Shown: positions 12,001 through 36,187 of the stretch, in pieces
Layout of the letters: each line of letters starts with the position of its first letter
Numbering within the stretch: position 1 is the stretch's first letter
NCBI GenBank assembly: GCA_964458915.1
Contig: CAYWKY010000001.1
Location: 1-38,492 of the forward strand
Origin: an uncultured Faecalibacterium sp.
Lineage (GTDB): Bacteria > Bacillota > Clostridia > Oscillospirales > Acutalibacteraceae
Reading direction: 5' to 3'
Length of the DNA stretch: 38,492 nt
Translations under genes and position numbers: made by a program
Notes under the pieces: model-generated
The model's input: only the letters and a program-made list of their open reading frames with translations
What the model was told of the DNA's origin: nothing
Databases searched by the model: none

Positions 12001-15000
12001 CAAACCACCTTGCAGGACTCCTCTACTTCGTAGCAAGCGACAATCTTGCAAATCTCGTTGACAATGTGCTTGCACTTGCAAACGGTCTGTTTAAGGTGCT
12101 TTCACCCTTGACAGGCACAGACGACCTTCTTTCAATGCTCGGTCTTGACCTTAGCATTCTCAAGCTCGACAAGCTTCTCGATATGCTCAATAAGCTTATC
12201 CAGAATCCCAAGGACTATGAGGTAACAGTTGCTAACGGTAAAGCAACTTATGTAAACGACAAGAAAGAAACAGTCGAAATTAAAGATACTTCTAAGATCT
12301 TTGACAAAGAAATAACTGATAAAAATAATAACAAAAAGACTATCAAGGCTATCACAGTCAATACAGGTCTTGACTTCACTATCACTAAGGATATGCTCAC
12401 AGGTCTTGTTGCTGCAATGGGCGAATATACTACATTCGACTCACTCAGAACATCAGCAACATCAGCTCTCCTTGATAAGGACGGCAACGCTGTTGATACA
12501 AACGGCAACCCGCTTACAGGTGACGCAATTCTTAGTAAGAAGATTACAACAGTTGTTGGTTGTGACCACTCACTCTACGGTCTTCTTAACTTCGTTCTCA
12601 CAGATGAGATCCTCGGTCAATTCATAAGTGTTGATGAGACTGACACTGATAACATCCTCAACGATGTTATCAAGGCTCTCACAGCTGACGACGCTGCTAA
12701 GGGTATTGTAGATCTCCTTGGTACTCTTACAACTGAGTACCTTGTTGAGTACGCAGTAATCTTCGCAGAAGAAGGCGAAAATGCGTTTAAGAAGATTCCT
12801 GTACTCTATGCCGGTGATGAAAACGGTCATACTGTTACAAGAGACACAACTCTTAACGCTATCACTAACCTTGACAACTTAATTAATCCTATCTTTGAGA
12901 TTACAGGTCTTGGTTCACTTCAGGATCTCGTTGGCGGTCTTGTATTCACCGACGATATGGTTAACATGATCGTTGGCCTAATCGCAGGTCTCTTCTCAGG
13001 TCTCAACAGCGACACAATGTCACTCATTGACACTATTGCCGGTATTCTCGGTGAAGAAATCGACATTAGCGTTGAAACCTATAAGAATAACGAAACTCTC
13101 GCAGACTTCTTCGGTGAAGCTACGACTTGGGCTGAAGTTGCTGAGAAATATACTAAGTATGTTTACACCTACACCAGCGTCGATAAGGACGGCAAGGAAG
13201 TTGTTAACACAGTATATCTCGCTGATGCAAACGCAACTGAGTACAAAGTAAGCGACAACGAAACCTATACACTTACAAAGGTTTACGAGCAGAAGACAGA
13301 TAGCACAGGCACTCTCGTATACAATGTAAACGGTACTGAAACAGCACTTAATGATGTTAAGAAAGACACAGATGGTACCTACTACATCGAGAAAGATGGC
13401 GCAAATGTTATCGTTACTCCCGTTTATACAGATAAGCGTGCTACTAAGGTCGTTTATGATTACGCTTGGGGTATGGATAAGCTCACTGATACTGTTGAAA
13501 ACAATGTAGTGACTTACTCAAAGATGTATAAGCAAATCGATAAGTTTGTTGCAATCCTTACAGGCTTACTCAAGCCCGTAGACTTCATTCTTGAAGTTCT
13601 TCTCGCCGGTGGTACCGACGATGGTGACGCTACAAATTGCGACTCAATCGGCGCATTTGGCGAAATCAACATCATGGGCGGTTCAGGTTACAACTATGCG
13701 ATTATCCCGCTTCTTGAAACTCTGGGCGTACCTAACGAAATGATTAAGACTCAGACTGAATATGAAGCAACATTTGCTAATCAGGGCGCACTTGGCTATA
13801 TCCTTGAAACACTTCTCAAGTATATTGCTGATGGTCTTAACCAGCCTATGAGCTTCGTAATCAACCTTGTAACAAATCTCGTTTACTCAATGGCTAACGG
13901 CGACGGCTTAACTAAGCTTATCGGCAACCTTATAGCTCCTGTTTCAGAGCTTCTCAGAGCTGTCGAAGGCGTTCTTCCCGTTGCAATTGAAATTAACCTT
14001 CTCAACATCTTCGCAGAAGATACAACCAAAAACCCGATAATCAACTTCTATCTTGGTGATAGCGTTGCTTCTCACGGCGCACAGGTAGGTCTTAAGATTG
14101 ACCTTAGCCTTGCAACCTTTGAGCAGCTTATCACAGCAGCAGTAGGTAAGTTCGCAAACGGTCTTGACCTTGAATTTGACCTTAAGACATTCGTTCAGAG
14201 TGCTGTTGCAACTAATGCGGATGGTTCTATTAAGTATGTTGCTTCTATGACATCCACAGCTTACGATAAGGTAAATCCTGAAGGTAAGGAATGGAGAGAT
14301 AGAATCGTAGTTGATAAGGCAGACGCACTTGTAGCGTTCCTTGACATGATCGTTACTAAGGAATTTGTTGACACTCTCCTTAAGGACGTTCTCAAAGTTG
14401 AGCTTGACGAAAACGGTTATATTCCTGCTCTTGCTAACTTGAGCGAAGATCTCGCTAAGCTTGTAAGAGACGCTATGGATGACCCGTCAACAGTTGTAGA
14501 CGTTGTTATTAAGCTCCTTGCAGCTGACTACACCGTTAACGACGTTAAGGTACTCTTCGACGCACTCACAGGCGCTTCTTACAACTACGAGACAGAGGGC
14601 GTAACAAAGAATAAAGTTGAGTTAGCTCTCAATAAGCTTGATGCAGTTATCAACAACGCTATCAAGCCGGTGTTCAATATCCTTGGCGGTATGAACAATA
14701 TGCCCGAAATCGTGACAGAGCTTGCAGAAGCTGTTAAGAATGACGACAACGCATCAATCGGCAGTGTTGTTGACTACGCTCTTGAAACAATGCTCTTCAC
14801 AGACGATATGATTAATACTCTGTTCAGCCTTATCGTTAACTTGCTCGCAGGCATTGATGCTAAGACATTCAAGACCATTAACGATATTACTACAGAGGTT
14901 CTCAAACTTGACATTACACCCGAAGGCTTCGCAAAAGCTATGGACGCAGCTCTCGAAGGCACCGAACAGGGCGCAGTATCAGCATACATTATGAGCTTCA

Positions 15001-18000
15001 AGAACGGCGACAAGGCTCTCACATGGTCCGACATCGCACTTTCCAAGAACTACTATGTATACGAATGCACTATCCCTGCTGCTGATAACGGCGGTAAGGA
15101 GAAGAAATTCGAGGTTACTTACCTGACTCAGGGTGTTACAAGCCACGAAATCGACGGCAAAGCTTATCCCATTGTTCCAGTTTATGAGAAAGATGGCGTA
15201 ACTCAAAAGACAAAGGCTGTCCTCGACTATAATTGGGGCATTGCAGAAGCTGAAAACAAGCAAGAGAAATTCATTAATACACTTCTTGAAATCCTTGCTC
15301 CGTTCAGCCCGATCCTCGACTGGTTGTTCAGAGGTGAATCCATCACTCTCATCTATGAAGGCTTCTCACTCGATGGCGGTAACGCATACGACAACGTACT
15401 TGTACCTCTCGCTAAGGCTCTTGGCGAAGACATCAGAACAAACAAACAAATTGGCACAGATAAGAACGTAATTTACTGCGTTGGCGAGCTTCTCAACGGT
15501 ATTCTTAGTATCGTAGACAGACTTGCAGATGCACCTGTTCAGACAATTATCGACGTTGTTGTTGGTCTTAGCTACTTCATCGCTTCCGACGGTATAGCTG
15601 AGACAGTTAAGGGACTTCTCGCTCCCATCTTCGGTCTTTTGACAACTGTTGAGTCCATCGCTGACATGAATGATATTGATGATCTTCTTGAAAATCTTCT
15701 CCATATCAAACTGCCCGGCGGTAAGATGCTCACAGTAACTAACATTATTAATATTGCAGGCGAGCATGGTGAAGGCCTTGTTGCAATGCTTAACGAGCTT
15801 CTCGGTACAGTTACCATTGAAGACGAACTCGGCAACGTAGCAACATTCAACCTTCTTCCTGAGGACTTCTTCCTCCAGATTGCTAACTACGGTATTGTTA
15901 ATGCAACTCAAACACCTCTCACTGAGGGTCAAATGGGCTATGACTATCAGCCCAGACAAATTAGCGTAACCGATTGGGACATCGATACAGCAGACGCTCT
16001 TATGTATATCCTTTCAACAGTTTGCTCCGACAGCTTCTTAAAGGTACTTTGCAACCTTCTTAAGGCTGACGCAAACAGCTCTGTTGGTCAAATCGTAGTT
16101 GGTCTTGCCGGTAAGCAGGATAACATCGTTGATATTATCATCACATTGCTTACTGATTACAAAGTAACCTACTCCGATTATAACCGTGGCGATATAAATA
16201 AGACTCCTGTTACTCACATCAAACCGATGGATGAGGAATCACTCCAAGCTGCTCTTTCAGCTCTCGATAGTATTATCCCGGCTGTTGTTGGTATCTTCGG
16301 TCTTGACGCTGATTCACTTCAGAGCTTGTTAGGTGAGCTTCTCCAGGGTCTCGATATAGGTAACATGCTCATGGATATGCTTGTTCCCTTACTCGCAAGT
16401 ATGGACCTTGATGAGATAATCGGTTATGTAAATGACCTTACTAACTTGAACCTTGATATAAGCACATATGCATTCTGCCATGACACCTTCGATTCTAAGC
16501 TTGACAGCTTCATAGCTTCCGCTGTTGACACTGACAAGAACGGCAAGATCTCATGGAAAGAGCTCGAAGCTAAATATACCCAGTATGTATACGAATATAC
16601 TGTTGATGGTAAGAAAGAGACTTACTACAGCTATGACGATAACCTTGAAACCGCAACAATCGGTGAAGGTACAGCTGCTAAGACAGTTAATCTTACAAAG
16701 GTTATGGAAGACGTAACTGTTAACGAAACCACAACAAAGGTACACAAGAAGGAAATGCACTCAACATTTGATTGGGAGTTTGACTACACTACAAACTTCG
16801 ACGGACTTGTTGATTTCGTTTGCGACCTTCTCTATCCTCTTGATAGCGTTCTCGGTCTTCTTCTTACCGGTGAACAGGTAATCATTCTTGAAGATAAGAA
16901 TGCTGAAGAGCGTGAAGATATTCGCATCAACGGCGGCAGAGGCTACAACTTCGCAATTATCCCGCTTCTCGAAGCATTCGGCATCGAAGCTATTAGCGAA
17001 GAAGATTACATTGAGCTGGCTAAGACAGAAGGTCATCTCCATTATATCCTTGATGCAATCGTATCCAAGGTTACAAACGACCTTCTTAAGCATCCTGTTC
17101 AGACTCTACTCGGTATGCTGGCTAACCTGTTCTACTTCATTGGTACAAACGGCATTAACTATGTTGCTGAGAACCTTCTCGCATTCGCAAATATCTTGCT
17201 CGAAAAGGTAGCTCCTGTTTATAAGATCGGTATCTCAATCGACCTTAGTGAGCTTAACAAGACAAACGGCGCAGTTCTTAAGACAACATTTGATTCTAAG
17301 TATGCTGATTCACTTCCGGCAGGCATTAATATCAATTGTCGCGCTTCTGATCTCACAGCTCTCATCGCTGACCTTATCAGCGGTATTCAGATCGACCTTG
17401 ATGGCGATGGAATTAAGGATGACCTTGGTCTTGAGCTTAATCTCGACTGGAATGCTCTTGCAGCTAAGATGGCTAAGGTTGACGAAAACGGCGATATTAT
17501 TAAGCATCAGACCGCACAGGTTACAACCGAAGGCACTCGTGCTACTTGGTACAACATTGAGGGTGATGTTGAAGATACCTTCACAACTCTCATTGACACA
17601 ATCTTGACAGAAGATAACGCTTACGCAATCTCGAAGCTTCTTGAAAATCTTCTCAAGAATGTTGAGTTGCCTGACGGCTCTGACGGCGGTATCGACGTAG
17701 TTAGTATCATTAACGATATTATCTATGATCCTAACGGCATTAAGGAGCTTCTCGCAGCAGTAGTTCTTCTTCTCAGCGGTACTTACTCAACTGAAGCTCT
17801 CCCGACTGTATACAATGTCTTTAAGGCACTGTCATACTTCGTTGGTGAGACAGCCGGAGACAAAGATAAGCTTAACAAGGCTATTAGCAGACTTGACACT
17901 ATCATAGTTCGTGAAGTTCCTGAACTTCTTCCCATGTTCATCGACTCCACATCAGCAACGGGTATTCTCAAGACACTTCTTGATGCTGCTAATGCATCTG

Positions 18001-21000
18001 ATAGCCTTTACGGCATGGTTGAATACATTCTCGGTGAGCTTGTATTCACAACAAAGAACTTTGAAACAATTATAAACGCAGTCATTAAGGCAATTGCAAA
18101 CTTCTTAACAGAAGACCTTGTTGGAATCCTTAAAGACCTTCTGGGCATCGACCTTGCACCTCAGGCCTTCGCTAAGGCAACAGGCAACACAGCTCTTATC
18201 AGCTATGTTGGTACAAGCAAGACATGGAAAGACGCTTGGCTTGCTCATAGCACAGAAACTACTGACGGCAAGGATCGTGTAGCAACAGCCTACAACTGGG
18301 GTGTAAATAATCAGGATACATTTGTTGATGCTATTCTTCAGTTTATTACTCCGTTGAATCCTGTTCTTGACTTCCTGCTTTGCGGTAAGGAATTAACTCT
18401 GCTTGACGAAATCAAGTTACCCGGCGGTTACGCTTATAACGGCGCTCTTGTTCCGCTGTTTAAGGCATTCGGTGTAGATCTTGCTTCGGCAACATCTTCC
18501 TCAGACGCTCTTGACAAGCTTGTAACCGGTCTTATCGGTACAAACGGTCTCGTTGGCAAGCTCACAACAGCTCCTCTTGAGACAATTCTTGAACTCGTTG
18601 CAGGTATCAGCTACCTGTTAGCAAACGACAACCTTGAGCCGATTATTAAGAATCTCCTCACTCCTGTCTTTGCAATTCTTGAATTACTTGAGCCTGTTAT
18701 CAGCAGAAAACAGCTTGACGATATTCTCACAGGTCTCATCGGTATGAGCCTTACAGAAATCATCGAAATTGGTAACAACGGCGGTGCAAACCTTGTTGCT
18801 CTTCTCAACAAGCTTATCGGCGGACTTAAGGTTAAGGACGATCAGGGCAATGTTGTTGACACAACTGACGTTCTTGCTCCCGACTTCTTCATTGAGCTTT
18901 CACGCTATGCTATCGTTGATGAAGTATACGAAGGTGACGTTAAGTACGACAAGCCTTCCGACGTTATCAGCAAAACTCCTGCAACTTCATGGAATGTTGA
19001 TGCAGCAGAAACACTTATGTACATCCTCGACAAGGTTCTTGACGATACATTCCTCAAGACACTTGCCGGCATAATCAAACCTGACGCAAGCGCAGACGAC
19101 ACTCTTACTTCGATTCTCGTTTCACTTGCAAACAAGGAAATTGAACTTGTAGATGTACTTCTTAAGCTCCTTGACAAATACACAATCACTTATACAAGAA
19201 TTCCGCAGTCCAATCTTGACAACAGTGTCAAGGCAGATTACAGCGCATTCGGTGAAAATGCAACTGATGTTAAGAATTCACTTCCCGGCGCTATGACAGC
19301 CCTCGATGCACTTCTTACAACAGTTCTCGGTCTTCTTGGTACCGATAGCGACCTTGGTGCTCTCGTTGACGGTCTTCTTAAGAACGCAGACCTTGGCAAT
19401 CTCATTATGAATGCTCTTGTTCCCGTTCTTGCAAAAACTGACCTTGATTCAATCATCAAGTATGTCAACGATCTTACTAACCTTAACCTCAATATTAACC
19501 CGCAGGCATTCGCTAACGATAAGTTTGGCTCTAAGCTTAAAAACTTTATCGGCGACGCTACGACATGGGCTGAGTTAGAGGCTAAGTACGCTATGTATGT
19601 TTACACTTACACCGATGGTGGCAAGGCTGTAAACTACTTATCGAATGATGCTAACCTTAATGGCACGACGATTACAATCGGTGAAGGCGATAAGGCTAAG
19701 GTAGTTACTCTCACAGCTGCTATGGTAGATGTAACAGCTGAAGATGGCACAACTTCATCAGTACAGAAGAAACAGATGAACGCTCAGTTTAACTGGAACC
19801 TCAACACTCTTGAAGATGTTGTGAACTTCGCTTGCGACCTTCTCCTTCCTCTCGATGTAGTATTTGAAGTACTTCTCAGCGGTAAGCAGATTATCGCTCT
19901 TGAAGACGGTGACTCTATAAGACGTGCAGATATTCGCATTAACGGTGGTTACGGCTATAACTACGCTCTCGTTCCTCTTCTTGAGGCTCTTGGCGCAACA
20001 CCTGTTGACCAGGCAACCTACGACAGAGAAATCGACAGCAAGTATCATGGCTCATCACTTAAGTATATCCTTGACACAATCGTTGGCAGAGTAGACGAAA
20101 TTCTCGCTGCTCCCATTAGCCAGGTATTCGGTCTCATCGCTAACTTGTTCTACTTCGTTGGTTCAGAAGGTATCAATACTTTCGTACTCAACCTTGTAGC
20201 TCCTGTAACAGAGCTTCTCGACGCAGTTTGCAAGGTATATCCGATCAGCATCCAGGTTGGTATTGTTGACGGCGCATTCAAGTTCGACACAGACTTTACA
20301 GGTACTAAGGGTCTTGAACCCGGCTTCAAGTTTGATCTTAAGGCTGATGACCTCAACGCACTTCTTGGCTCACTTCTCAGTGGCATCAAGGTAAATGACA
20401 AGCCTCTCGGTCTTACTCTTGACCTCGATTGGCTCAGCCTTGCCGCTCAGATGGCTAAGAGAGACGCAGACGGCAACATCATCTATAAAGATTCTGCTAT
20501 GGTTTACGGCTATGCAGACTCAACTATGAAGGGCGACGGCAACGATCCTTATAAGAACATCGAAGGCGATCCCGCTAACACATTGGTAGCTCTTCTCGGT
20601 GCAATTCTCACCGACAAGAACGTAGCTGTTATTAAAGAGCTTGTTCTCGGACTTCTCGGTGACACTAACCTTGACCCGACAATCGAAGGTCTTATCAATG
20701 ATGTTCTCAGCAATAAGAACGCACTCATTAACCTTATCGGTACTCTCGTAATCATTCTCACCGGCGAATATAATGTTACAACTCTTGAAATGGCATTCTT
20801 ATTCTTCGGCGTTAAGGATTACAATCTTGATAGAGCAGACGAAGCTATCGAAGCTCTCGATAGACTCATTGGTAAAGCAGTTCCCGTTATCCTCCCGCTT
20901 ATTGCCGGCGATAACGTAGAGGAAGGCTCACTTATGGATACTCTGCTTCAGGCTTCTAAGAATGTACCCGCAGGTACACCTGTTCTCAAGCACATCGTTG

Positions 21001-22196
21001 ACACACTTCTCAACGATATGGTATTCACAGATTCAATGATGAAGACTATCACCGATATGCTCATTAAGCTCCTCGGTGTAAACCTCAAAGCTGATCTTGT
21101 TGATACTCTCGGTGACCTTCTCGGCATCGACCTTACTCCGACAGCATTCGCTACTGCAAGCGGTAACGCTCAGCTTCAGGCTTATGTAAATGTTGGTACA
21201 GGCACAGGTACAGACGGCGCAATCACTTGGGCTGATGTACTCGCTGCTCACAGCACTAAGGACGAGAACGGCAACATCACTGCTATTGATCCTGTATTTA
21301 CCGGTGTTAACACTAAGGAAAGCTTCCTCGGTGCTGTCTATGACCTTCTTACTCCTCTTGAGAGTGTTCTCGCATTCTTGCTCACAGGCGGTGACCTTGA
21401 AATCGCTAAGGGCATGGGCGTTGACAACGTAAAACTTAAGGGTAACGCAGGTTATGACAACGCTATTAAGTATCTCTTCAAGGCTCTCGGTCTTGAGGAA
21501 ATGGGCGCAACATGGGTTGAGGCAACAGATGCAGTTGATGCACTCAGCAACACTGTTGATTACATCTTCACTCTTGTTGATACTCTTTGCAGCGCTCCCT
21601 TCGATACACTACTCGTTCTTCTTGGTAACTTGAGCTTCTTCATCGCAAATGGCGGTGTTGAGGTACTCATCAACAACCTTGTATCACCTGTTCTTTCACT
21701 TGTTGATGCACTTTCAGGCACAATTTCAAGAGAACAGCTTGACGCACTTCTTGCTTCACTTACAAAGAACGATATGCTCACCATCAGCGGTATCCTCGGT
21801 ATCGCAGGTGACCACGGCGAAGCTCTTGTAGAGCTTATCAACGGCTTACTTCCCGATCTCAAAGTTGAGGGTAAGGACGGTACCGTTCACGTAATCAAGG
21901 CTCTCAAGGAAGACTTCTTCATCGAACTTGCTAAGGCAGCAATTAAGGTTGACGTACCTAAGAACCCGGCTCTTAACGCCGAAGTTACTAAGTGGCACGT
22001 TGAAACAGGCGACACACTTATGTTCATCCTTGACACAGTTCTTACTAAGGACTTCCTTAACATTCTTTGCACTGCACTCGGTATCAACGCAAAGAATGAA
22101 CAGGGCGAGGAAAATCAGATTTATAACATCCTCATGTCACTCGTTGACAAGGAAGAGGAAATTCTTGACCTTCTCATTGACCTGCTTGCTAAGTGA
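3..22196 (+). CDS. Giant modular repeat protein, 5' part. The frame is open to the left window edge and ends at a TGA created by the 385-bp duplication junction.
   Basis: The frame is uninterrupted for more than 22 kb (7379 codons from ATG 57). There is no in-frame stop between nt 3 and 57. Residues encoded at about 57-1140 align with the C-terminal half of later modules, so the real start is upstream of the window. Codon bias is strong and uniform. Twelve copies of the conserved core G-G-x-G-Y-x-x-A-(I/L)-(I/V)-P-L-L-E-A-L-G occur in this part. No known family recognised. Confidence 0.9.
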   Translation, partial: FLLDLFGGISVYTLPVWSMFLESMFADMGLDLTNGFDGILNMLMQATKTDQATYNAEQAKPEADRAAFLMKAVLDNKGNKVYDLYNKDGTVKQYGVDTAALAKQYPDGLPNGEYTALREEPYRDSDGNYYYKLGLLTQTLFSTGAKGCNEGYLEVLTFNKKGVGTVDFSVPVNRIAAMGTVTEKTINGVKSTWTGYHINADPGDVILSLFRWLLNDGVLAKLTPLLNGMLSDGSSSVTIIDTIVPILDGQADTLMAVLISLLNNYTVNGFEYKDTFKDGKMTWRELGTKAGQFVLGEYLTSSLSDEETAGVNDTDEKRLAKVDRAIKNIDDLINDLLPTLLPIVLPMVEGSIPADLKGILEPLKNVEKGDTLANIVADVITTDDLMQYLIKMLFGTHEQKTEKDKDGNDVPVWKKNDAGKYVDENGNEVTEGTVPVLDTGLLGNILSMDIISNLLPALADFDIDLRPSSFYSAAETHFNNGGSAIKGWLDACMQAANVTEINKLEWKDVKYIAGTKWFNLKDSTAEIKVDAFFDVIETLLTPLDPLLSYILSGQSITLFDELTLQGGKGYQTSVVMLIEALGYGSVNIDATYKTSMSEQQYYTYVYGTAEPTAPAGHRTWKTVNSPLAPLFTTLRAFLVGDGETLGVLESPLTVLLSKLPNIAYLMYMYDTDELDPTGANHYKQTNNLAQAIKNLIAPVLSLLDIIDPILARALELDIGGLLDQYLNIENIVNELLTGLINADKTDGDKTEVVVSHFVDFGALAIYGATPYKNAPSNVVVNGTAYGTFTYFQGSPAKAFITLMRSIVSDDLINMFADLFMRVYTAVEEGETVTPEMAADRDRVRTIVKAIASRAKNTLTVNGEYNGTSVDIITGILVDVLTDYVPGQGVDMFYKKMADSLDKSDALLKDTMDKYGIVHQGYNWNDVSKDDKDNVLFTKDDVNNTLEGIDSVLEKAIPDILNILIKNNMLDLSSLGIELEAGDTSTVTLYQLLTKIVEKYAFTDSIMTTIVNLLCGIFGGSVGDFLPIVADAGIDITAVTLYKKAATNSGLRQYMAYNIAGGVDENGKITVDGKKRDITWADIYDAHSYQKYVYDENGNIKEENGKPVMSFDTKVKLDENGKQVTDADGNLVLVPDTTKPKKALITGIYNQVANDKGEFKYTYKDGKETKDYYSKYEHLESFAVKGKDEDGKEVYTKYTLKPVYAEPSETNTAKWTWNFESVANANFYAKVSYFITQLWEILGCLEDILEAIFFGASSNKAVKLFDTLNIEGQDSYEEVMLPLLRGFGLDAILSHLNTTKVKGDNSKTLLQQLNEKRHELYGDVADIPDRLIMDNDGMKEACDYTAENGYDMSAFLETNINYILFFIEILASYPVTTLLTALPTLAYFIAGDGLNEILTNLLTFVTVLTDRLGPIVKVDVNSLGGGLIDYLGTNDWSSFQKAFTKHITVDDKGNVTETEIDVSFTQAIISFVANIKFDLAGLLKKDAPYVRTVTYFINHDVEEQAWAMINAKPDDAKVLEAARTLRANAVTDWLKQIAALAEPFGEQYTDADGNTHNIPEAYQNYVKIDAANGQLTVNKADVFMFVIDFIFENTTIKEVLGALLGYDITDENESDAALLDELITNIFKNPDSLVKLIVALFNGYTVPGATTVVLDKIDEHHYNFYDDDGNTTYKDVLEQIQAGTYAGSEISRAKTSYAIDNLDKLVGTVLNLFKKDLVKEGGLFHGIFDENDDISLKAAVNGLLEDMLFTDDMINDLLGMLVGLLAGEGTADIIGIVTDILNSATGIDISPKAFANNDTLKQIILKADGKTAKTWSEIAKENTKYAFTYVTGKDDQGKDITATWYDVQTASTVTIDGKSYDLDPVWNQKQAQNADKEYEYFYYATENDKKDDNKTSYFDKEQNKTTVTIEGTEYTLTAVMVDDKTSQKTAVKFDKEWNIVVEATDTDESGKIDQAEIDAATAQSRLNFVTILWDVLQPLAPVLEVFLTGAELTIYDEITFRGFKGYSGVILPIIEALGVPVLTKTDGTKYLDNSKYYKTQEAYEAAVNAKGSDKQVLLQSITDALFALVDSLCDRPVSTIATILPYLSRFIESDGLDTIVANLLSPVTALTDMIKDIYDLDLIGLLKGVLQGLAGSSDDQAVETAAEYATQQLTMVQATNTSTGIQLKDNSQTRAADTQSGVDTSKLTFMDIIWKILENVKIKVNDTTTIALSNIISQNLFHVLASCAWFDGDNTGALHIKDVEYDENNINDSKVINVALEGENYAQYYVDRETVLLAVLDTLVFQTGVRDLIAGFLGDYDFSAAGLAGLEADPNKTLDTDYLIPALLYGVFTDGEALERLLIDLLSWYDVEYAPARVSTSIEGITNDLPAANWETSGIDKNELEKLPEQLDNLIAAVLPLVIELLPTFGVKLNLETGGATSIEGIVENLIASLFKDTEKADGLATTLFELLVNLFGGSKLDGTLSLIYELTGGDESAINLTLDYFKASSEAVATYFADCKTWEDAYKKYNNKVAFTGQKVTYTDADNVEHKDAPVANDGTFLYVTDEYNNPVAEYALDKDNNKIPVYANGNFITDDYGNKWYTTAGTATEGEQPLKDTYVVKTAEGKVVYQYKYAVQLTITNSFGATDYDKTMALLGDIITPFVPVFRLLLVESGDLVLLDGITISAGDGYDRFIIPVAEMLGITVENDKNAVAAFDNAEFGDWFVGCIVKLIHKIVSAPVQTIVDLIPSLSYFIVSNGLAQSVEQFLAPLLTLVDMVNDITAKEHTITGREEPLVALNIYELLVDLLDGIVTLPEGTDTAGEVITALLTADGLENLIMGLAKDAEGNTKLGFIDGIFAEIVTKTCATAEVKTMRYFGATQRGGSRYIQGIKTSRAVTVINLISEMVLAEDGLIFDILNLLNVNLDDDKNATIKTVIDGITGDKRYCVLQVLLNYFNHYDVENDLIEYLSFDKQDYDYSNYTTGTTLTARKVRRAIKKLDQAILALIPEILPMLENVDILKDALASLKKPDGTYTGVTLNQVIEAILTDLAFNDDTMNSLVGLVVGLLGGEGISDTLDSIAPVLAKIEIDLTPATIADNAPDTAVASFINAAIAATTSETVTRADVSWSDIAKYYSDNRYYYIDTVVDTKDTDDTSDDVTTYVIKEYFDNDKYENASTQTITVNGNGVEKVLYNLVIETDTDGKIVWDGAEGGTPKFKKDDKGATISAGTKVLGATTYTWGISEADSFEAKKDKFISELWAILKAVEPVLNFLLRGDNITLKSTVKDENGNDKEVDAITIKGGQGYRYALYPLLQALAADQMNNTLVDASAYESGKGNYITISAIFDGIFNIVENLENGPFEYILTLLPSLSYFLSSDGLRIFVENLLSPVFALLDVAEPAVGALLDDLLGGLLSPLVDDYMPSFGEEVENKRPTNDNKTPEDPSDDYKEYTLDEIMQIAGADGSNLVKIINKVVGGLLVKTPEGETAQVIEILPANFFKDYVAHAVEISRDEGAKQYYELQVNGTNKIIYMAQADYNEETMASLYTIKATRYAVSSWNVDIADSLVYLLQSVVSEDLLKVFAKDYGTDKWNDKLSKNDLITVILNNLINGKNNGLTITDILVSLFEGYEISYSPLNGIYIEGVGKHDGYSNTSDLAGKLDNVINEALPVLLPMLIKNPAEGSLADTLLKAMKDYDSSAEGAGTSIEALLDALVNSFLTDDMVRGVLEMLIGVLGNSTIDMVLGLVKIGENKLTADEYLAEIKNHFTREGLTEDQKAAYAAALNALTTIIGGSDSWTDVAKKYTRYEYTYIITPASGDNKAVTGTYYDADSKLNGTKKTIGGKEYTLAAAYEVVDGKSVHKTAIKLDENLTFGIKDATDKLDALIKAFTVILEPLTAVLQLVLQGKTVTLLSSNGQYVGDFDADITGATDNDDRAEEIEAGVIVGDGYIELRGSKGYDEGLLALAEAIFGQIKGTALAAQIPDGATFNAYTNIEDILGAVVNMIMALVDGLAQGPIEFLSNHLAGLLYFVASDNLANLVDNVLALANGLFKVLSPLTGTDDLLSMLGLDLSILKLDKLLDMLNKLIQNPKDYEVTVANGKATYVNDKKETVEIKDTSKIFDKEITDKNNNKKTIKAITVNTGLDFTITKDMLTGLVAAMGEYTTFDSLRTSATSALLDKDGNAVDTNGNPLTGDAILSKKITTVVGCDHSLYGLLNFVLTDEILGQFISVDETDTDNILNDVIKALTADDAAKGIVDLLGTLTTEYLVEYAVIFAEEGENAFKKIPVLYAGDENGHTVTRDTTLNAITNLDNLINPIFEITGLGSLQDLVGGLVFTDDMVNMIVGLIAGLFSGLNSDTMSLIDTIAGILGEEIDISVETYKNNETLADFFGEATTWAEVAEKYTKYVYTYTSVDKDGKEVVNTVYLADANATEYKVSDNETYTLTKVYEQKTDSTGTLVYNVNGTETALNDVKKDTDGTYYIEKDGANVIVTPVYTDKRATKVVYDYAWGMDKLTDTVENNVVTYSKMYKQIDKFVAILTGLLKPVDFILEVLLAGGTDDGDATNCDSIGAFGEINIMGGSGYNYAIIPLLETLGVPNEMIKTQTEYEATFANQGALGYILETLLKYIADGLNQPMSFVINLVTNLVYSMANGDGLTKLIGNLIAPVSELLRAVEGVLPVAIEINLLNIFAEDTTKNPIINFYLGDSVASHGAQVGLKIDLSLATFEQLITAAVGKFANGLDLEFDLKTFVQSAVATNADGSIKYVASMTSTAYDKVNPEGKEWRDRIVVDKADALVAFLDMIVTKEFVDTLLKDVLKVELDENGYIPALANLSEDLAKLVRDAMDDPSTVVDVVIKLLAADYTVNDVKVLFDALTGASYNYETEGVTKNKVELALNKLDAVINNAIKPVFNILGGMNNMPEIVTELAEAVKNDDNASIGSVVDYALETMLFTDDMINTLFSLIVNLLAGIDAKTFKTINDITTEVLKLDITPEGFAKAMDAALEGTEQGAVSAYIMSFKNGDKALTWSDIALSKNYYVYECTIPAADNGGKEKKFEVTYLTQGVTSHEIDGKAYPIVPVYEKDGVTQKTKAVLDYNWGIAEAENKQEKFINTLLEILAPFSPILDWLFRGESITLIYEGFSLDGGNAYDNVLVPLAKALGEDIRTNKQIGTDKNVIYCVGELLNGILSIVDRLADAPVQTIIDVVVGLSYFIASDGIAETVKGLLAPIFGLLTTVESIADMNDIDDLLENLLHIKLPGGKMLTVTNIINIAGEHGEGLVAMLNELLGTVTIEDELGNVATFNLLPEDFFLQIANYGIVNATQTPLTEGQMGYDYQPRQISVTDWDIDTADALMYILSTVCSDSFLKVLCNLLKADANSSVGQIVVGLAGKQDNIVDIIITLLTDYKVTYSDYNRGDINKTPVTHIKPMDEESLQAALSALDSIIPAVVGIFGLDADSLQSLLGELLQGLDIGNMLMDMLVPLLASMDLDEIIGYVNDLTNLNLDISTYAFCHDTFDSKLDSFIASAVDTDKNGKISWKELEAKYTQYVYEYTVDGKKETYYSYDDNLETATIGEGTAAKTVNLTKVMEDVTVNETTTKVHKKEMHSTFDWEFDYTTNFDGLVDFVCDLLYPLDSVLGLLLTGEQVIILEDKNAEEREDIRINGGRGYNFAIIPLLEAFGIEAISEEDYIELAKTEGHLHYILDAIVSKVTNDLLKHPVQTLLGMLANLFYFIGTNGINYVAENLLAFANILLEKVAPVYKIGISIDLSELNKTNGAVLKTTFDSKYADSLPAGININCRASDLTALIADLISGIQIDLDGDGIKDDLGLELNLDWNALAAKMAKVDENGDIIKHQTAQVTTEGTRATWYNIEGDVEDTFTTLIDTILTEDNAYAISKLLENLLKNVELPDGSDGGIDVVSIINDIIYDPNGIKELLAAVVLLLSGTYSTEALPTVYNVFKALSYFVGETAGDKDKLNKAISRLDTIIVREVPELLPMFIDSTSATGILKTLLDAANASDSLYGMVEYILGELVFTTKNFETIINAVIKAIANFLTEDLVGILKDLLGIDLAPQAFAKATGNTALISYVGTSKTWKDAWLAHSTETTDGKDRVATAYNWGVNNQDTFVDAILQFITPLNPVLDFLLCGKELTLLDEIKLPGGYAYNGALVPLFKAFGVDLASATSSSDALDKLVTGLIGTNGLVGKLTTAPLETILELVAGISYLLANDNLEPIIKNLLTPVFAILELLEPVISRKQLDDILTGLIGMSLTEIIEIGNNGGANLVALLNKLIGGLKVKDDQGNVVDTTDVLAPDFFIELSRYAIVDEVYEGDVKYDKPSDVISKTPATSWNVDAAETLMYILDKVLDDTFLKTLAGIIKPDASADDTLTSILVSLANKEIELVDVLLKLLDKYTITYTRIPQSNLDNSVKADYSAFGENATDVKNSLPGAMTALDALLTTVLGLLGTDSDLGALVDGLLKNADLGNLIMNALVPVLAKTDLDSIIKYVNDLTNLNLNINPQAFANDKFGSKLKNFIGDATTWAELEAKYAMYVYTYTDGGKAVNYLSNDANLNGTTITIGEGDKAKVVTLTAAMVDVTAEDGTTSSVQKKQMNAQFNWNLNTLEDVVNFACDLLLPLDVVFEVLLSGKQIIALEDGDSIRRADIRINGGYGYNYALVPLLEALGATPVDQATYDREIDSKYHGSSLKYILDTIVGRVDEILAAPISQVFGLIANLFYFVGSEGINTFVLNLVAPVTELLDAVCKVYPISIQVGIVDGAFKFDTDFTGTKGLEPGFKFDLKADDLNALLGSLLSGIKVNDKPLGLTLDLDWLSLAAQMAKRDADGNIIYKDSAMVYGYADSTMKGDGNDPYKNIEGDPANTLVALLGAILTDKNVAVIKELVLGLLGDTNLDPTIEGLINDVLSNKNALINLIGTLVIILTGEYNVTTLEMAFLFFGVKDYNLDRADEAIEALDRLIGKAVPVILPLIAGDNVEEGSLMDTLLQASKNVPAGTPVLKHIVDTLLNDMVFTDSMMKTITDMLIKLLGVNLKADLVDTLGDLLGIDLTPTAFATASGNAQLQAYVNVGTGTGTDGAITWADVLAAHSTKDENGNITAIDPVFTGVNTKESFLGAVYDLLTPLESVLAFLLTGGDLEIAKGMGVDNVKLKGNAGYDNAIKYLFKALGLEEMGATWVEATDAVDALSNTVDYIFTLVDTLCSAPFDTLLVLLGNLSFFIANGGVEVLINNLVSPVLSLVDALSGTISREQLDALLASLTKNDMLTISGILGIAGDHGEALVELINGLLPDLKVEGKDGTVHVIKALKEDFFIELAKAAIKVDVPKNPALNAEVTKWHVETGDTLMFILDTVLTKDFLNILCTALGINAKNEQGEENQIYNILMSLVDKEEEILDLLIDLLAK

Positions 22197-24750
22197 CCAC
22201 GGCGAAGCTCTTGTAGAGCTTATCAACGGCTTACTTCCCGATCTCAAAGTTGAGGGTAAGGACGGTACCGTTCACGTAATCAAGGCTCTCAAGGAAGACT
22301 TCTTCATCGAACTTGCTAAGGCAGCAATTAAGGTTGACGTACCTAAGAACCCGGCTCTTAACGCCGAAGTTACTAAGTGGCACGTTGAAACAGGCGACAC
22401 ACTTATGTTCATCCTTGACACAGTTCTTACTAAGGACTTCCTTAACATTCTTTGCACTGCACTCGGTATCAACGCAAAGAATGAACAGGGCGAGGAAAAT
22501 CAGATTTATAACATCCTCATGTCACTCGTTGACAAGGAAGAGGAAATTCTTGACCTTCTCATTGACCTGCTTGCTAAGTACTTAGTTGAATATAAGGCTT
22601 ATAAGCAGCAGCCCATTGACAAGACTCAGATGACCTCAGAGAGTACAAACGAACAGTTTAACAGCATTGTTTCTAACCTTGACGCTCTTATCCCGACAAT
22701 CCTTAGCCTTGTTGGTCTTAAGGATTCAGAGGGCAAGGACGTAACAAGCCTTGAAGATCTTATCAATGGCTTCCTTAACGACTCAATTGCTGATATGCTC
22801 GTTGGCATGATCGCAGAGCTTCTCTCCGGTCTTAAAGCTGAGGATATAGATCCTATTCTCGGTTATGTACGCTCACTCACAAATCTCACCGACCTTGACA
22901 TAGCTCCCAAGGCATTCGCAAATGACTTCTTTGGCTCAAAGGTTAAGCAGTTCTTTGCTGATACAGCTGCGGCAGCAAATACAACAATCGACAAGCTCAC
23001 ATGGGCTCAGGTTTGGACACTTAACAGCCATGAGGTTACTGACGCTGAAGGCAAGGTAACTCGTGAATTTAACGGTTACAACTGGGGCGTTAAGAGTCTT
23101 CGCGACCTTATCAACCTTGTTTGCGACTTCATCAAGCCTCTTGATTGCGTACTCGCAGTACTCATTCAGGGTGGTCAGGTAGAATCAGAGTTTATCGCTA
23201 GCGGTAAAACATCAGTTGGTAAGCCAATCAGCGCTCTTGACGAAATCAACATCATGGGCGGTATGGGTTACAACTATGCAATCTTACCTCTTCTTGAACT
23301 CCTCGGCGTTGACGCTATGAGTCAGGATACATTCGATGCAACAGTACTCGAAAATAACGGTAGCGTTCTTTATCCGATACTTGATATGCTCGACACAGCT
23401 ATCTACGGCTCAATTGATTCAAATGGCAACAGACAGGACGACGGCATACTTAAGAACCCGATCAACTGGCTCACAAGTATCCTCGCTAACCTTTGCTACG
23501 TTCTCGGTAACGACGATATTACAACTATCGTTGACAACCTCATCGCTCCTGTTAACCAGCTTATCGCTAAGGTTGACAAGATAATCCCCATCGCTATTGA
23601 AATTAACCTCGGTTATATCAATACCGATAAGAAAGTTGTCCAGATGTACCTCGGTACTGAGCATCCGGGCATTGAATCCGGTATCCACATTATCGTTAAG
23701 GGCGACGACATCGCAGCATTGCTCGAAAATCTCCTTGCAACACTTGAGATTGAGGGTAAGGCTCTCGGCATTAAGGTTGACCTTGATTGGCTCGCACTTG
23801 TCGGTAAGGCAGGTAAGGACGCTAACGGTGACGGTAAGGTTGACTTCAGCAAGACAAGACTCGACGATAAGTTCGACATCTTCAACGGCACAACCTACAG
23901 CACAATCGTTGGCGACCCGGCTGACACCTTCGTAACACTTCTTGATGTTGTTATAGGTGAAAAGGGTGAAGACGGCAAGACTAACATCGATAGAATCCTC
24001 GAAGCTCTCGGCGTTGAACTCAGCCCCGAAATCAAGGATATTATCGACCAGGTAGTTGAAGATCCTTCAAAGATCATCGACCTTATCGCAGGTCTTCTCG
24101 GCGAAACAACCTATCAGCCTGTACAGAACAGACCTATCGCTGTTACCGGCGAAGATTATAGAGGCTATCTGACCTTCACAGAGCAAAACGCTGACATAAT
24201 CGCTAACAACCTTGACGCACTTATAGTTGACATTCTCAACGCAGCAGGCGTTGGTTCACTCAGAGGTCTTCTTGCACCGTATATTTCAAACAAGACTGTT
24301 AACCAGCTTCTTGATATGATTATCGGTCTGCTTGCAGGCGACTCAGTAGGACCTATCCTTGAAACAGTTGCAAGCCTCAACCTTGGCATTGAGATTCCGC
24401 TTACTCTTAAGTCATTCTCAGCTAAGATCAGCGAGCTTGCTAAGACAAGAAGCTACCTTAAGGGCATCGCTGCTCACCTTGAAAAGGCTGTTAAAGCCGG
24501 TGGCGACAACGCTAACTGGTCAAATGTAACTTCACTTCAGGAAGCTAACATTAATTGGGAAGTTACCGACGGTAACACCAACCAGTTCACACGTGCACTT
24601 GCAGGCTTCTTAACACCGCTTAACGATCTGTTTGAGCTTCTGCTTATCGGCGAAAGCACAGGCATTAAGCTTGACCTGTTAGGTATCGCTCAAATCGGTG
24701 GCGGTAACGGATATGATTACGCAATCATCCCGCTTCTCGAAGCTCTCGGC
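1698..24750 (+). repeat. Protein-level array of 14 diverged modules within the giant gene (not a DNA-identical repeat)
   Basis: Conserved cores (GGxGY..PLLEALG type) lie at 1698-1748, 3810-3863, 6000-6053, 7998-8051, 9843-9896, 11796-11852, 13674-13727, 15372-15425, 16929-16982, 18420-18473, 19941-19994, 21438-21491, 23254-23307 and 24697-24750. Each is followed about 40-60 aa later by a (L/I)-P-x-L-x-Y-F-x-x-S-(D/N)-G-L-x-x-x-V-x-N-L-L-x-P-V motif. Each is preceded by an F-T-D-D-M-(I/V)-N-x-L-x-x-L-(I/V)-G-L-L-x-G type helix. Confidence 0.85.
21808..22579 (+). repeat. Exact head-to-tail tandem duplication, unit 385 bp (2 copies plus 2 nt), inside the giant gene
   Basis: nt 21808-22194 appear identical by eye to nt 22193-22579 (offset 385). 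The identical shadow ORFs 21887..22087 and 22272..22472 confirm the offset. 385 is 3x128+1, so the reading frame shifts. The junction reads aag|tga, placing TGA at 22194-22196. There is a 2-nt GT microhomology at the junction. Confidence 0.95.
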
Positions 24751-25776
24751 TTCCCCGCAGAACAAGTTCTCACTCACAGACAGTTTATGACCGCTGTTGA
24801 GAAAGACGAGACTCAGCTTCTCGGCTACCTCCTTAACAAGGTTGCAGAGCTTGTTAATAAGATCCTTGACAGACCTATTGATACAATTCTCGGACTCCTT
24901 CCGAATCTTGCATACTTCTTCTCAAATGAAGGCTTACTGCTTACAGTTAAGAACCTCATTGCTCCGATCTACACAGTACTCATCACAGTAACAAATGTTC
25001 TTGGTGTTAATATTGAAAGCTATCTCAAGCTTGAAGAACTTCTTCACAGCATTGACCTTGGCATCGTAGTTGGTGAGAGCAAGTATGACTTCAGAATTCC
25101 TGTAATCGATTGGCATAAGCTTGCTACTAAGGGTGGCGACAAGGCTCAGGAGGTTAACACCTCACGTTCCTATGAAGCTAACTCCTATGTACAGGAAATG
25201 AAGGCTGATGAATATGCAGCTTACACTAAGGCTAATCCGGATGCAGCTCACAAGACAACTCAGAAGCATATCGTAGCCGATAAGGGCGATACACTTACTG
25301 TTATACTTGCATGGGTATTCGATATGTTCGGTGACGCACACAACAGAGAGGCACTTGTTCAGTGGATCGTAGACTTCTTCGATCTTAAGAGTGGTGCTGA
25401 AGAAACTGTAAGATATGCAATTAACCAGCTCTTCAACCAGGCTGAGATGAACAACTCAACTGATATTCTTGTATCAGCTCTTATGATTGCTCTCGGCGTA
25501 GGCGTTGGTGTTGACAAGGCTATTATGGGCGACATCAAGTCAATCGTTGAAATCTATCGCCAGCTCTTCGGAGCAATCGGTGACGGTTCAGGTTCAATCT
25601 ACGGTTCAATCGCATCCGCAATGGAAGAACTTACCGGCGTTTGGTACGATACAATCGGTACACCTGAAGAAGGCGATGACGTTAAGGACGAAGTTGAAGA
25701 AAACCTCAACTGGTTCCAGAGACTCTTTAAGAAGATTAAGGAATTCTTCCAGAAGATTTTCGGTATCTTTGGTTAA
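22195..25776 (+). CDS. 3' remainder of the same giant gene, shifted +1 by the duplication. It carries the last two modules plus a unique C-terminal tail. If the duplication is real, this piece is effectively a pseudogene fragment.
   Basis: From nt 22195 the translation reads DHGEALVELING..., identical to copy 1, then continues YLVEYKAYKQQ... to TAA at 25774-25776. The tracked ORF start at 21928 (MLRQQLRL...) is an out-of-frame reading of copy 1, not a real N-terminus. Deleting one 385-bp copy joins 57..25776 into 25335 nt, which is 8444 codons plus stop. Confidence 0.85.
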   Translation, partial: DHGEALVELINGLLPDLKVEGKDGTVHVIKALKEDFFIELAKAAIKVDVPKNPALNAEVTKWHVETGDTLMFILDTVLTKDFLNILCTALGINAKNEQGEENQIYNILMSLVDKEEEILDLLIDLLAKYLVEYKAYKQQPIDKTQMTSESTNEQFNSIVSNLDALIPTILSLVGLKDSEGKDVTSLEDLINGFLNDSIADMLVGMIAELLSGLKAEDIDPILGYVRSLTNLTDLDIAPKAFANDFFGSKVKQFFADTAAAANTTIDKLTWAQVWTLNSHEVTDAEGKVTREFNGYNWGVKSLRDLINLVCDFIKPLDCVLAVLIQGGQVESEFIASGKTSVGKPISALDEINIMGGMGYNYAILPLLELLGVDAMSQDTFDATVLENNGSVLYPILDMLDTAIYGSIDSNGNRQDDGILKNPINWLTSILANLCYVLGNDDITTIVDNLIAPVNQLIAKVDKIIPIAIEINLGYINTDKKVVQMYLGTEHPGIESGIHIIVKGDDIAALLENLLATLEIEGKALGIKVDLDWLALVGKAGKDANGDGKVDFSKTRLDDKFDIFNGTTYSTIVGDPADTFVTLLDVVIGEKGEDGKTNIDRILEALGVELSPEIKDIIDQVVEDPSKIIDLIAGLLGETTYQPVQNRPIAVTGEDYRGYLTFTEQNADIIANNLDALIVDILNAAGVGSLRGLLAPYISNKTVNQLLDMIIGLLAGDSVGPILETVASLNLGIEIPLTLKSFSAKISELAKTRSYLKGIAAHLEKAVKAGGDNANWSNVTSLQEANINWEVTDGNTNQFTRALAGFLTPLNDLFELLLIGESTGIKLDLLGIAQIGGGNGYDYAIIPLLEALGFPAEQVLTHRQFMTAVEKDETQLLGYLLNKVAELVNKILDRPIDTILGLLPNLAYFFSNEGLLLTVKNLIAPIYTVLITVTNVLGVNIESYLKLEELLHSIDLGIVVGESKYDFRIPVIDWHKLATKGGDKAQEVNTSRSYEANSYVQEMKADEYAAYTKANPDAAHKTTQKHIVADKGDTLTVILAWVFDMFGDAHNREALVQWIVDFFDLKSGAEETVRYAINQLFNQAEMNNSTDILVSALMIALGVGVGVDKAIMGDIKSIVEIYRQLFGAIGDGSGSIYGSIASAMEELTGVWYDTIGTPEEGDDVKDEVEENLNWFQRLFKKIKEFFQKIFGIFG

Positions 25777-25817
25777 GTCACACGGTGATTGTAAAAGTCA
25801 CAACTGAATAAAAAATT

Positions 25818-25850
25818 CTCCCCATCTCAATTGAGGTGGGGAGTTTTTTT
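25818..25850. terminator. Rho-independent, probably bidirectional, terminator after the giant gene
   Basis: An 11-bp stem pairs ctccccatctc (25818-25828) with gaggtggggag (25833-25843), including one G-U pair. The loop is aatt and T7 follows (25844-25850). An A-rich run precedes the stem (aataaaaaatt), so the reverse strand also reads as hairpin plus U-tract. The site lies between convergent genes. Confidence 0.8.
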
Positions 25851-25877
25851 GGTATGTAACAGGGGAAGTGGGTAAAT

Positions 25878-25924
25878 GGGGACAGGTACATTTTGTGTTC
25901 TACAACACAAAAGTACCTGTCCCC
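25878..25924. repeat. Long inverted repeat / hairpin (12 bp + bulged A + 9 bp stem, loop ctac)
   Basis: ggggacaggtacattttgtgtt (25878-25899) pairs with aacacaaaagtacctgtcccc (25904-25924). There is no clear U-tract on either strand. It sits 19 nt downstream of the stop of the - strand membrane protein gene and is followed by a tandem 9-mer, ctgtggttt x2 (25924-25941). Confidence 0.7.
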
Positions 25925-25942
25925 TGTGGTTTCTGTGGTTTC

Positions 25943-26488
25943 TCAACCTAATTTATATACATATACTAAAAACGAAATCACAAAAAATATAGTGGAATAT
26001 ATCATAACAATAAGAGCTAAGTTTTTAATTGTTTTAAGCTCTATAGTTGAATTTGCTAATTCCTCCGGTGAAGCATTTTCATGATATTCGTTTCTGGCTT
26101 CAAGTATATCTTTAACTGAGCATGATATAACGATTATATCCAGAATAAAAATTATCATTAAGACAAACAATGAGAGAGCGAAGCCAACAAACTCATCGTT
26201 ATACAAGTTATCAATTGTATGAAGTATTTTTATTACAGGTAATGCCGCAGTTAAAGCAGTAAAAAAGGGTACCTTAAAAAAGATTTTTAGAAAGCTTTCG
26301 TTTATGATATATTTATATTTTGCAACGGGGCTTAGCGTTGACAAGTCAATAGTCGGCGCAGTGGTCTTCGGCATTTTCTCTCTCTTTGGCTTATCGTTAA
26401 ATGCCCATATAGCTATGCCGCTGTATATTAACAGCTCTATTAAATCAAAGAGTATGCCTATATCCTTGCTTGAGCTTTTCTTTGCCAT
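25943..26488 (-). CDS. Small integral membrane protein (about 4 predicted TM helices), function unknown
   Basis: 181-aa ORF with four hydrophobic stretches (IGILFDLIELLIYSGIAIWAF, FFKVPFFTALTAALPVIKIL, FVGFALSLFVLMIIFILDIIVISCSV, LALIVMIYSTIFFVISFLVYVY). AAGGAG lies 7 nt upstream of the ATG (26495-26500 on the - strand). The gene is AT-rich. No family recognised. Confidence 0.65.
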   Translation of the reverse strand: MAKKSSSKDIGILFDLIELLIYSGIAIWAFNDKPKREKMPKTTAPTIDLSTLSPVAKYKYIINESFLKIFFKVPFFTALTAALPVIKILHTIDNLYNDEFVGFALSLFVLMIIFILDIIVISCSVKDILEARNEYHENASPEELANSTIELKTIKNLALIVMIYSTIFFVISFLVYVYKLG

Positions 26489-31987: not shown

Positions 31988-32003
31988 GAGAAAGGAGATT
32001 ATT

Positions 32004-34101: not shown

Positions 34102-34115
34102 GGAGGATTTTTATT

Positions 34116-34457: not shown

Positions 34458-34478
34458 TAAAACGGGAGGTAAAATAAC

Positions 34479-35480: not shown

Positions 35481-35492
35481 GGGTGATAAGCT

Positions 35493-36186: not shown

Positions 36187-36187
36187 G

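Follow-up and report, generated by a model that had tools for sequence, protein, structure and literature searches.

Is the exact 385-bp repeat inside the giant gene of this contig a mutation carried by the sampled bacterium, a reversible switch or a product of assembly? An earlier note had left all three explanations open, and our comparisons narrow them to a private recent event or an artefact, with a switching role unsupported. On balance we lean modestly towards a real, non-programmed truncating duplication that would be revertible by the loss of one copy. The window referred to below is the whole stretch of DNA analysed (38,492 nt).

Structure of the duplication

The features that define the duplication are as follows.
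21808..22192, + strand: copy 1 of the 385-nt unit, in the native frame; residues 7251-7379 (window numbering), within module 13
22193..22577, + strand: copy 2 of the unit, sharing its frame with the rest of the gene downstream
22194..22196, + strand: TGA stop across the copy 1/copy 2 junction (AAG/TGA)
22578..22579, + strand: GT, as at the start of the unit; junction microhomology that makes the breakpoint ambiguous by 2 nt

Copy 1 and copy 2 were 100% identical by direct string comparison and a repeat search, and for the whole window Tandem Repeats Finder reported a single array (21808-22579, period 385, 2.0 copies, 100% matches, 0 indels), which corroborates the exact tandem duplication described earlier. 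An exact repeat of this length cannot be due to chance. Beyond the unit, identity reaches 0 nt leftward and 2 nt (GT) rightward, and no other exact DNA repeat of substantial length occurs in the window, the remainder being 24- to 85-nt motif echoes of 60 to 89% identity between protein modules. The junction reads CTGCTTGCTAAG on the side of copy 1 and TGACCACGGCGAAG on the side of copy 2. With a length of 3n+1, the unit causes a +1 frameshift, and the reported stop at 22196 is indeed present. The GT overlap had been taken as a signature of illegitimate recombination, but this is an over-reading, since a match of at least 2 nt occurs by chance at 1/16 and the microhomology is therefore weak evidence either way. 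No repeat, hairpin or other formation-promoting feature was found at the endpoints, where just 2 nt overlap and DNA folding gave z-scores between -0.4 and -1.1.

The locus in conspecifics and relatives

All seven conspecific contigs, which come from seven other samples and have 98.6-99.9% identical DNA, contained exactly one copy and no junction. Five of these were Logan contigs, each from a different run (99.8-99.9%), and the other two were ENA MEGAHIT contigs (98.6-99.3%). The junction 40-mer was found in 0/7 of the set, a result of limited power because minority variants are invisible in consensus contigs. A junction 24-mer was not found in JGI metagenome contigs. In related Acutalibacteraceae/Oscillospiraceae MAGs, 31/31 orthologous loci were open through the junction site and for about 2.8 kb further, and eight homologous protein fragments aligned without gaps over the junction, via a conserved K-YLVEYK motif. 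By these comparisons, the single-copy gene is clearly the ancestral state and the norm and, because every one of the conspecific contigs and orthologous loci is single copy, the duplicated allele is private, derived and very young, unless it is an artefact.

The youth of the event is also reflected in the full identity of the copies and in the lack of any nonsynonymous derived change downstream of the stop, where no more than two derived substitutions, each of them synonymous, separate the window lineage from the others. Compared with the nearest strain, 12 of the 16 differences in the giant gene are synonymous. Across 54 other loci of the giant gene family, about 665 kb in all, no other exact tandem duplication was found.

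The giant gene and its predicted truncated product

Outside the repeat itself, the following features bear on the products of the locus.
3..22196, + strand: upstream reading frame of the giant gene (ORF1), 5' end cut by the window edge; ends at the junction stop; 7,379 aa from ATG 57 in the window
22154..22158, + strand: AGAGG, a putative Shine-Dalgarno-like motif 6 nt 5' of the TTG at 22165; core shared with the mfd gene of the window
22165..25776, + strand: downstream ORF P0001 (ORF2), 1,203 codons; 10 out-of-frame codons, then native residues 7252-8444; intact, with no further lesions
25708..25773, + strand: part coding for the C-terminal 22 aa, NWFQRLFKKIKEFFQKIFGIFG; amphipathic helix, more conserved than any other element of the protein, absent from the upstream product
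25818..25850, + strand: intrinsic-terminator-like hairpin and T-run directly 3' of the giant gene, as read from the sequence

Deletion of one copy in silico gave an uninterrupted frame ending at 25776, in agreement with the earlier claim that the loss of one copy would restore the gene exactly. The length of 8444 codons given there for the intact gene, on the other hand, is an effect of the window edge: the frame is open back to position 3, the giant gene exceeds the left edge of the window, and in conspecific contigs the intact, roughly 29-kb gene encodes 9,660 or 9,666 aa. Because the intact gene is of this length (9,660 aa) in conspecific contigs, the full truncated product would be about 8,595 aa.

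Downstream of the junction lie 1,065 residues, so the predicted loss of this C-terminal part with its amphipathic tail holds. The modules affected had been given as 13 and 14. According to the module HMM, the break falls mid-module and the lost part comprises only the final 144 aa of module 13 (7085-7523), module 14 in full (7552-8028), a further, partial module not previously listed (8045-8346) and the tail. The tail, LNWFQRLIKKIKEFF.KIF, hardly varies across the orthologs (28/28), and its hydrophobic moment of 0.80 corresponds to the 99.99th percentile within the giant protein; this helix probably serves to anchor the protein at, or direct it to, the cell envelope. The N-termini of full-length relatives are classic signal peptides, from which we infer that the giant protein is exported; the N-terminus of the window's own gene lies beyond the window, and the signal peptide is known from the relatives alone. 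Searches of Pfam and the PDB gave no match to the giant protein. The duplication itself is ordinary, and the uncharacterised giant protein family that it strikes is the more interesting object.

ORF2 begins, at its TTG, 29 nt before the ORF1 stop. Its product carries no signal peptide, and no other record of this product was found. Translation of ORF2 could be possible from what would be a fortuitous Shine-Dalgarno-TTG combination, giving a product that misses the export signal. Because the downstream ORF is without an export signal, the phenotype of the allele would most likely be loss of function or an "unanchored" protein.

Origin of the duplication

We infer that the junction is present in real DNA. 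In the reading that we favour, the sampled strain, or a large part of its population, would carry a very recent 385-bp tandem duplication, produced in a single illegitimate-joining or template-switching event with an overlap of just 2 nt, inside the gene for a giant, exported and modular protein. The shifted frame would run into the TGA at the junction, and the signal-peptide-bearing product would end without two-plus modules and the near-invariant C-terminal helix. Exact reversion could occur through recombination or slippage between the two copies, but such reversibility is generic to tandem duplications and is no dedicated switch. Bacterial tandem duplications with 0-3 bp of junction overlap are documented and real, and non-homologous tandem duplications with 0-4 bp of overlap in bacterial experimental evolution have been attributed to template switching or end joining (bioRxiv 10.64898/2026.05.22.727201). 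[quoted passage not shown]

A lesser, though still serious, possibility is that the genome is single-copy and that the second copy was made in assembly, scaffolding, gap closing or contig merging, for example by overlapping contigs being joined end to end or by an assembly-graph loop being wrongly traversed. As in false duplications in draft assemblies, the copies are perfectly identical and directly adjoining, the allele appears in one assembly only as against the single copy in 7 conspecific contigs and 31 orthologs, and a conserved, otherwise intact gene under purifying selection is broken, yet shows no downstream decay; an artefact would look alike. Random joins also yield a 2-nt overlap, and the junction fits a chance join; in a Salmonella study, the only duplication junctions verified by experiment were those overlapping by at least 11 bp (PMC3411829). 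Against an artefact, and unlike such false duplications, the duplication has no gap, Ns, contig-end position or nearby DNA repeat able to confuse an assembler (none above about 20-30 exact nt in the surrounding DNA), the unit length matches no usual k-mer size, and independent assemblies otherwise align colinearly with the contig, differing by SNPs and one 1-bp intergenic indel. De Bruijn graph assemblers are not known to emit novel junction k-mers unless these are contained in reads, and with repeats their usual error is collapse and not creation, behaviour that speaks against an invented junction.

It is unlikely that the duplication is one state of an adaptive, reversible ON/OFF (anchored/unanchored) switch, in which one-copy and two-copy forms would alternate as bet-hedging. 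The gene is exactly restored by losing one copy, its 29 kb are a very large target for duplications, and its product probably belongs to the surface or exported proteins, a class usually under phase variation. There is also a precedent in Streptococcus pneumoniae, where the type 3 capsule gene cap3A shows tandem-duplication phase variation with ON/OFF switching in culture, duplication being OFF and reversion ON (Waite et al. 2001, summarised in PMC11163986). As in cap3A, an exact tandem duplication within the ORF would turn the giant gene off and its precise loss would restore it. However, cap3A duplications arise repeatedly and their switching was seen in culture, whereas the giant gene has one private allele, known from sequence alone, with no recurrence in 7 conspecific samples, 31 species, the JGI contigs or the other loci of its family. 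The featureless endpoints also argue against frequent formation, which would be a rare random event, leaving reversion as the only fast step. The units in cap3A are 11-239 bp, shorter than the 385 bp found here.

Least probable is a functional gene fission into two cooperating polypeptides of about 8,595 and 1,203 aa with a 129-aa segment common to both: ORF2 is intact, its TTG has AGAGG at the 6-nt spacing of genuine window genes, and its start shortly before the ORF1 stop makes translational coupling conceivable, but the two parts would end up in different compartments because ORF2 lacks a signal peptide and the relatives are exported via an N-terminal signal, the break sits mid-module, and none of the 31 orthologous loci is split at this site.

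A comparable split is known from ebh, a giant surface-protein gene that in Staphylococcus aureus Mu50 and N315 is divided by a strain-specific frameshift into ebhA and ebhB (PMC3868527). Both are giant-protein genes of about 30 kb that are intact in most strains and cut by a frameshift into two ORFs in particular strains. The empty Pfam and PDB searches, however, revealed no kinship of the giant protein with Ebh in sequence or fold, and its tail is an amphipathic helix and not a transmembrane segment, in contrast to Ebh. The ebh lesion has been described as a "permanent" frameshift, whereas the duplication in the giant gene is perfectly revertible.

The duplication and the interrupted gene

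The coding sequence of the giant gene holds an exact direct tandem duplication that destroys its reading frame. Positions 21808-22192 and 22193-22577 were identical across all 385 nt, both in a repeat search and in a direct comparison, and the identity of the copies extends 0 nt leftwards and 2 nt (GT) rightwards. The earlier note had claimed an exact 385-bp duplication that is the only DNA-identical repeat in the window, and both statements held: TRF returned a sole tandem array in the 38.5 kb (period 385, 2 copies), and the 385-nt unit was the only long exact repeat of any kind. The duplication is real at the sequence level and was correctly described; its borders are as follows.

Borders of the 385-nt unit (plus strand; the slash marks the border)
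Left outer boundary, flank/copy 1, at 21808: …GGTATCGCAG/GTGACCACGG…
Novel junction, copy 1/copy 2, at 22192/22193: …GACCTGCTTGCTAAG/TGACCACGGCGAAGCTC…
Right outer boundary, copy 2/flank, at 22577: …CTTGCTAAGT/ACTTAGTTGAA…

At the junction, the codons of the upstream frame are …GCT AAG TGA, which places a stop at 22194-22196. Removal of one copy in silico gave a single frame open to 25776, 1,065 residues past the junction, and this de-duplicated frame matches that of single-copy contigs of the same species and of orthologs. Frame analysis thus reproduced the claimed junction stop with the loss of the last 1,065 aa, as well as the claimed restoration of an intact gene when one copy is lost.

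The gene is longer than the 8,444 codons previously assigned to it, a count taken from the first in-window ATG. The frame stays open as far back as window position 3, and the gene is one 9,660-aa ORF in four conspecific Logan contigs and is 9,666 aa long in one ENA contig; it is therefore about 29 kb in length, with a cut product of about 8,595 aa. The downstream ORF (P0001, or ORF2; 1,203 aa, from the gene caller) begins at TTG 22165, within copy 1 and in the downstream frame, with an AGAGG 6 nt 5' of the TTG whose core is identical to the SD of mfd in the window. Its first 10 codons are out of frame, and native residues 7252-8444 of the de-duplicated part come after them. The two ORFs of this record are one gene, with an intact form of 9,660 codons, and the practical value of this result is as a warning for annotation.

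The single-copy state in related genomes and the age of the lesion

Eight homologous protein fragments (40-51% identity in the junction region) align gap-free over the de-duplicated junction, with the motif LL.KYLVEYK.Y conserved through the site and with K7379 and Y7380 adjoining in 8/8. A scan of GTDB species representatives gave 31 orthologous loci at 30-75% identity, from Acutalibacteraceae/Oscillospiraceae MAGs of animal and human guts. In every one of them the frame, already open more than 10 kb upstream, passes uninterrupted through the site, and wherever the sequence extends it continues about 2.8 kb past the site, as far as it does in the de-duplicated window.

Conspecific contigs of other samples were retrieved through exact-protein look-ups of neighbouring genes. 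The five site-spanning Logan contigs (SRR19576302, SRR17221340, SRR19576313, SRR22923233 and SRR22923244), 99.8-99.9% identical to the window, each carry exactly one copy of the unit (100% identical) with both outer boundaries present, and none contains the junction 40-mer. Both ENA MEGAHIT contigs, ERZ27271044 and ERZ27271040 (98.6-99.3% identical), are likewise single-copy. The junction was thus found in 0/7 conspecific contigs, which as consensus contigs have low power for minority variants, and a junction 24-mer had no match in JGI metagenome contigs. None of the retrieved conspecific contigs was 100% identical to the window. No record of the ORF2 product was found elsewhere by protein search and exact look-up, and no other exact tandem duplication was present in about 665 kb from 54 other loci fetched. 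Because the contigs are single-copy, the junction k-mer is absent, ORF2 is unrecorded and other duplications are lacking, the two-copy allele is private to this assembly; the comparison with related genomes proposed earlier left 31/31 orthologous loci and 7/7 conspecific contigs without the duplication.

The copies being 100% identical, the disruption is younger than any detectable divergence. The giant gene differs from that of the nearest strain at 16 sites, 12 of them synonymous. With the ENA lineage as the outgroup for polarising substitutions, 10 substitutions in 9.1 kb are derived in the window lineage; they are evenly spread, and only 2 of them lie downstream of the stop, both synonymous. 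The 1,203 downstream codons are intact and without further lesions, and with these two silent changes as the only derived ones there, a decaying frameshift pseudogene was rejected. A SNP cluster at 21179-21650, upstream of the unit, was considered as a mutational shower or a chimeric strain join; its 6 sites split 3:3 between the window and Logan lineages, and it is therefore not tied to the duplication.

Origin of the duplication and competing explanations

The lesion is of an ordinary class, an intragenic tandem duplication leading to a frameshift, or else it is an artefact, and we lean towards a real, one-off duplication. If real, it would have formed by illegitimate joining or template switching and not by RecA-mediated unequal exchange, since there is no flanking homology beyond 2 nt and there are no notable hairpins at the endpoints. 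Direct repeats of tens of base pairs or more are missing from the boundaries (0 nt left, 2 nt right), which rejects a homology-flanked, RecA-formed duplication of the repeat-unit-repeat-unit-repeat type, and structure-driven slippage at the endpoints is unsupported by DNA folding z-scores of -0.4 to -1.1. A phage origin of the region was rejected as well, with no match for positions 20000-26000 in a megablast search against phage records. The GT microhomology had been put forward as typical of illegitimate recombination or replication slippage. The overlap is indeed present, but it does not discriminate, because overlaps of 0-3 bp are documented in real bacterial duplications (bioRxiv 10.64898/2026.05.22.727201) and yet random joins also give 2 nt; the junctions verified in one Salmonella study all had 11 bp or more of overlap (PMC3411829).

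An assembly artefact, in which the second copy would be false, is possible though on the whole unlikely. The allele is unique to one assembly and a gene under selection is disrupted, both of which speak for an error, but the surroundings are clean and repeat-free (the duplication is the window's sole long exact repeat), Ns are absent, and the duplicate does not sit at a gap, a contig join or a misleading repeat. Moreover, graph assemblers need reads containing the junction k-mers to produce a junction.

An adaptive, dedicated ON/OFF switch had been raised as one explanation and is improbable, as the junction does not recur in the conspecific or JGI contigs and no feature that promotes its formation was found. 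A simple-sequence-repeat contingency locus, working by slipped-strand mispairing, would need many units of 1-10 nt, whereas TRF shows only period 385 in 2 copies. A known case of duplication phase variation is that of cap3A, the type 3 capsule gene of S. pneumoniae (PMC11163986). As in cap3A, an exact tandem duplication within the ORF kills the frame here and removal of one copy regenerates an intact, conserved gene; unlike in cap3A, recurrent independent duplications or mixed ON/OFF populations were not found, in a comparison of low power for minority variants. Two 385-bp tandem copies are expected to revert through recombination or slippage. We give little credence to the reading that the two-copy allele is real and coexists with one-copy cells, so that random, exactly reversible duplications toggle between an anchored full-length protein and a truncated (released or absent) one. 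If true, a contingency mechanism of the cap3A kind would operate in uncultured gut Clostridia, on a family without known fold or function. The locus also offers a clean test case for the presence, in populations of gut bacteria, of revertible knock-outs in their largest surface-protein genes.

Functional fission of the gene into two working polypeptides is very improbable. The upstream product would be without the tail and the ORF2 product without an export signal, so a protein that works in two pieces is less likely than a loss of function or a release from the cell.

The giant protein family and its genomic surroundings

The break falls in the middle of module 13 of a protein that has, within the window, about 15 divergent helical modules of 440-590 aa each and a net charge of -598. 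The C-terminal 22 residues (NWFQRLFKKIKEFFQKIFGIFG) are nearly invariant in 28/28 orthologs whose end is in view, are conserved far above the rest of the protein, and constitute an amphipathic helix whose hydrophobic moment, 0.80, is at the 99.99th percentile among all of the protein's 18-mers. This helix lies past the junction stop, in agreement with the suggestion that a membrane-targeting-like tail is lost. No transmembrane-like segment was seen (no Kyte-Doolittle 19-residue mean above 1.9). A module profile search gave 645 clusters when grouped at 50% identity, many with lengths of 2,000-7,700 aa, and full-length relatives begin with typical signal peptides (e.g., MKLGKKVLSCVLAIMMIVTSVSVCFTSFAVSA) and end in the same amphipathic tail. 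The proteins of the family are giant, from 2,000 to over 9,600 aa, highly acidic and equipped with signal peptides, and their helical modules are about 450-500 aa long. To look for the missing N-terminus, proteins were searched with the first 700 aa and JGI loci with the first 500 aa; neither search gave a match, and the signal peptide of this gene is therefore deduced from its relatives only. We infer from these sequence features that the protein is exported and that the conserved tail anchors or targets it. A natural truncation allele sparing everything but the tail would help in learning what the tail does.

Nothing in Pfam reached the gathering cut-off on the 8,444 aa, or rose above threshold in distant relatives or in the N-terminal 1,300 aa of two full-length relatives. 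Module 13 was modelled with AF2 (pLDDT 74.7); Foldseek matched the model to no PDB structure (best E 0.47), and a profile search against PDB sequences came back empty. The population-genetic pattern resembles that of ebh, a staphylococcal giant gene of 33 kb that is split into ebhA and ebhB in particular strains (PMC3868527). The hallmarks of Ebh/Embp are FIVAR/GA-type helical repeats, a YSIRK signal and a C-terminal transmembrane anchor; with no significant Pfam match, no transmembrane-like segment and no Foldseek hit, an Ebh/Embp-type protein was rejected, and the likeness is one of architecture only. The giant gene family is a larger point than the duplication and merits a study of its own. 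Three of its orthologs in other species (loci L010, L017 and L022) contain paralogous modules, 3.2-3.6 kb apart, that share short exact DNA repeats of 30-90 nt, suggestive of a recent duplication of modules, or of gene conversion, inside the gene.

The window is chromosomal (mfd, obg, rnc), and its own proteins carry an NCBI source label. The giant gene is followed by its own terminator hairpin, a 181-aa gene and mfd on the minus strand, a phage head/packaging set, obg and mini-RNase III; the giant gene-mfd synteny is not conserved in the orthologous loci of other species.

Features downstream of the giant gene
25880-25926, intergenic, between the convergent giant gene and 181-aa gene: long near-perfect hairpin, GGGGACAGGTAC…GTACCTGTCCCC
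25943-26488, minus strand: 181-aa ORF with no Pfam or PHROG match
30169-36580, plus strand, between mfd and obg: phage head/packaging genes (small and large terminase, portal, phrog_16951, virion protein, major head protein, three small ORFs)

Genes for a tail, lysis or an integrase were not seen with the phage set, which may be a domesticated, GTA-like or satellite-like element, since it is kept in all of the conspecific contigs that were retrieved. Among the Logan contigs (k=31), many stop at 25904-25909, probably through a palindrome-induced assembly break, and strain differences at 25856, 25865, 25891 and 25906 cluster in and around the hairpin. The 181-aa ORF is identical in 12 contigs of the species and may be variable or decaying, since shorter ORFs (78 aa and 87 aa) are called in its place in a more divergent lineage (loci L043-L045).
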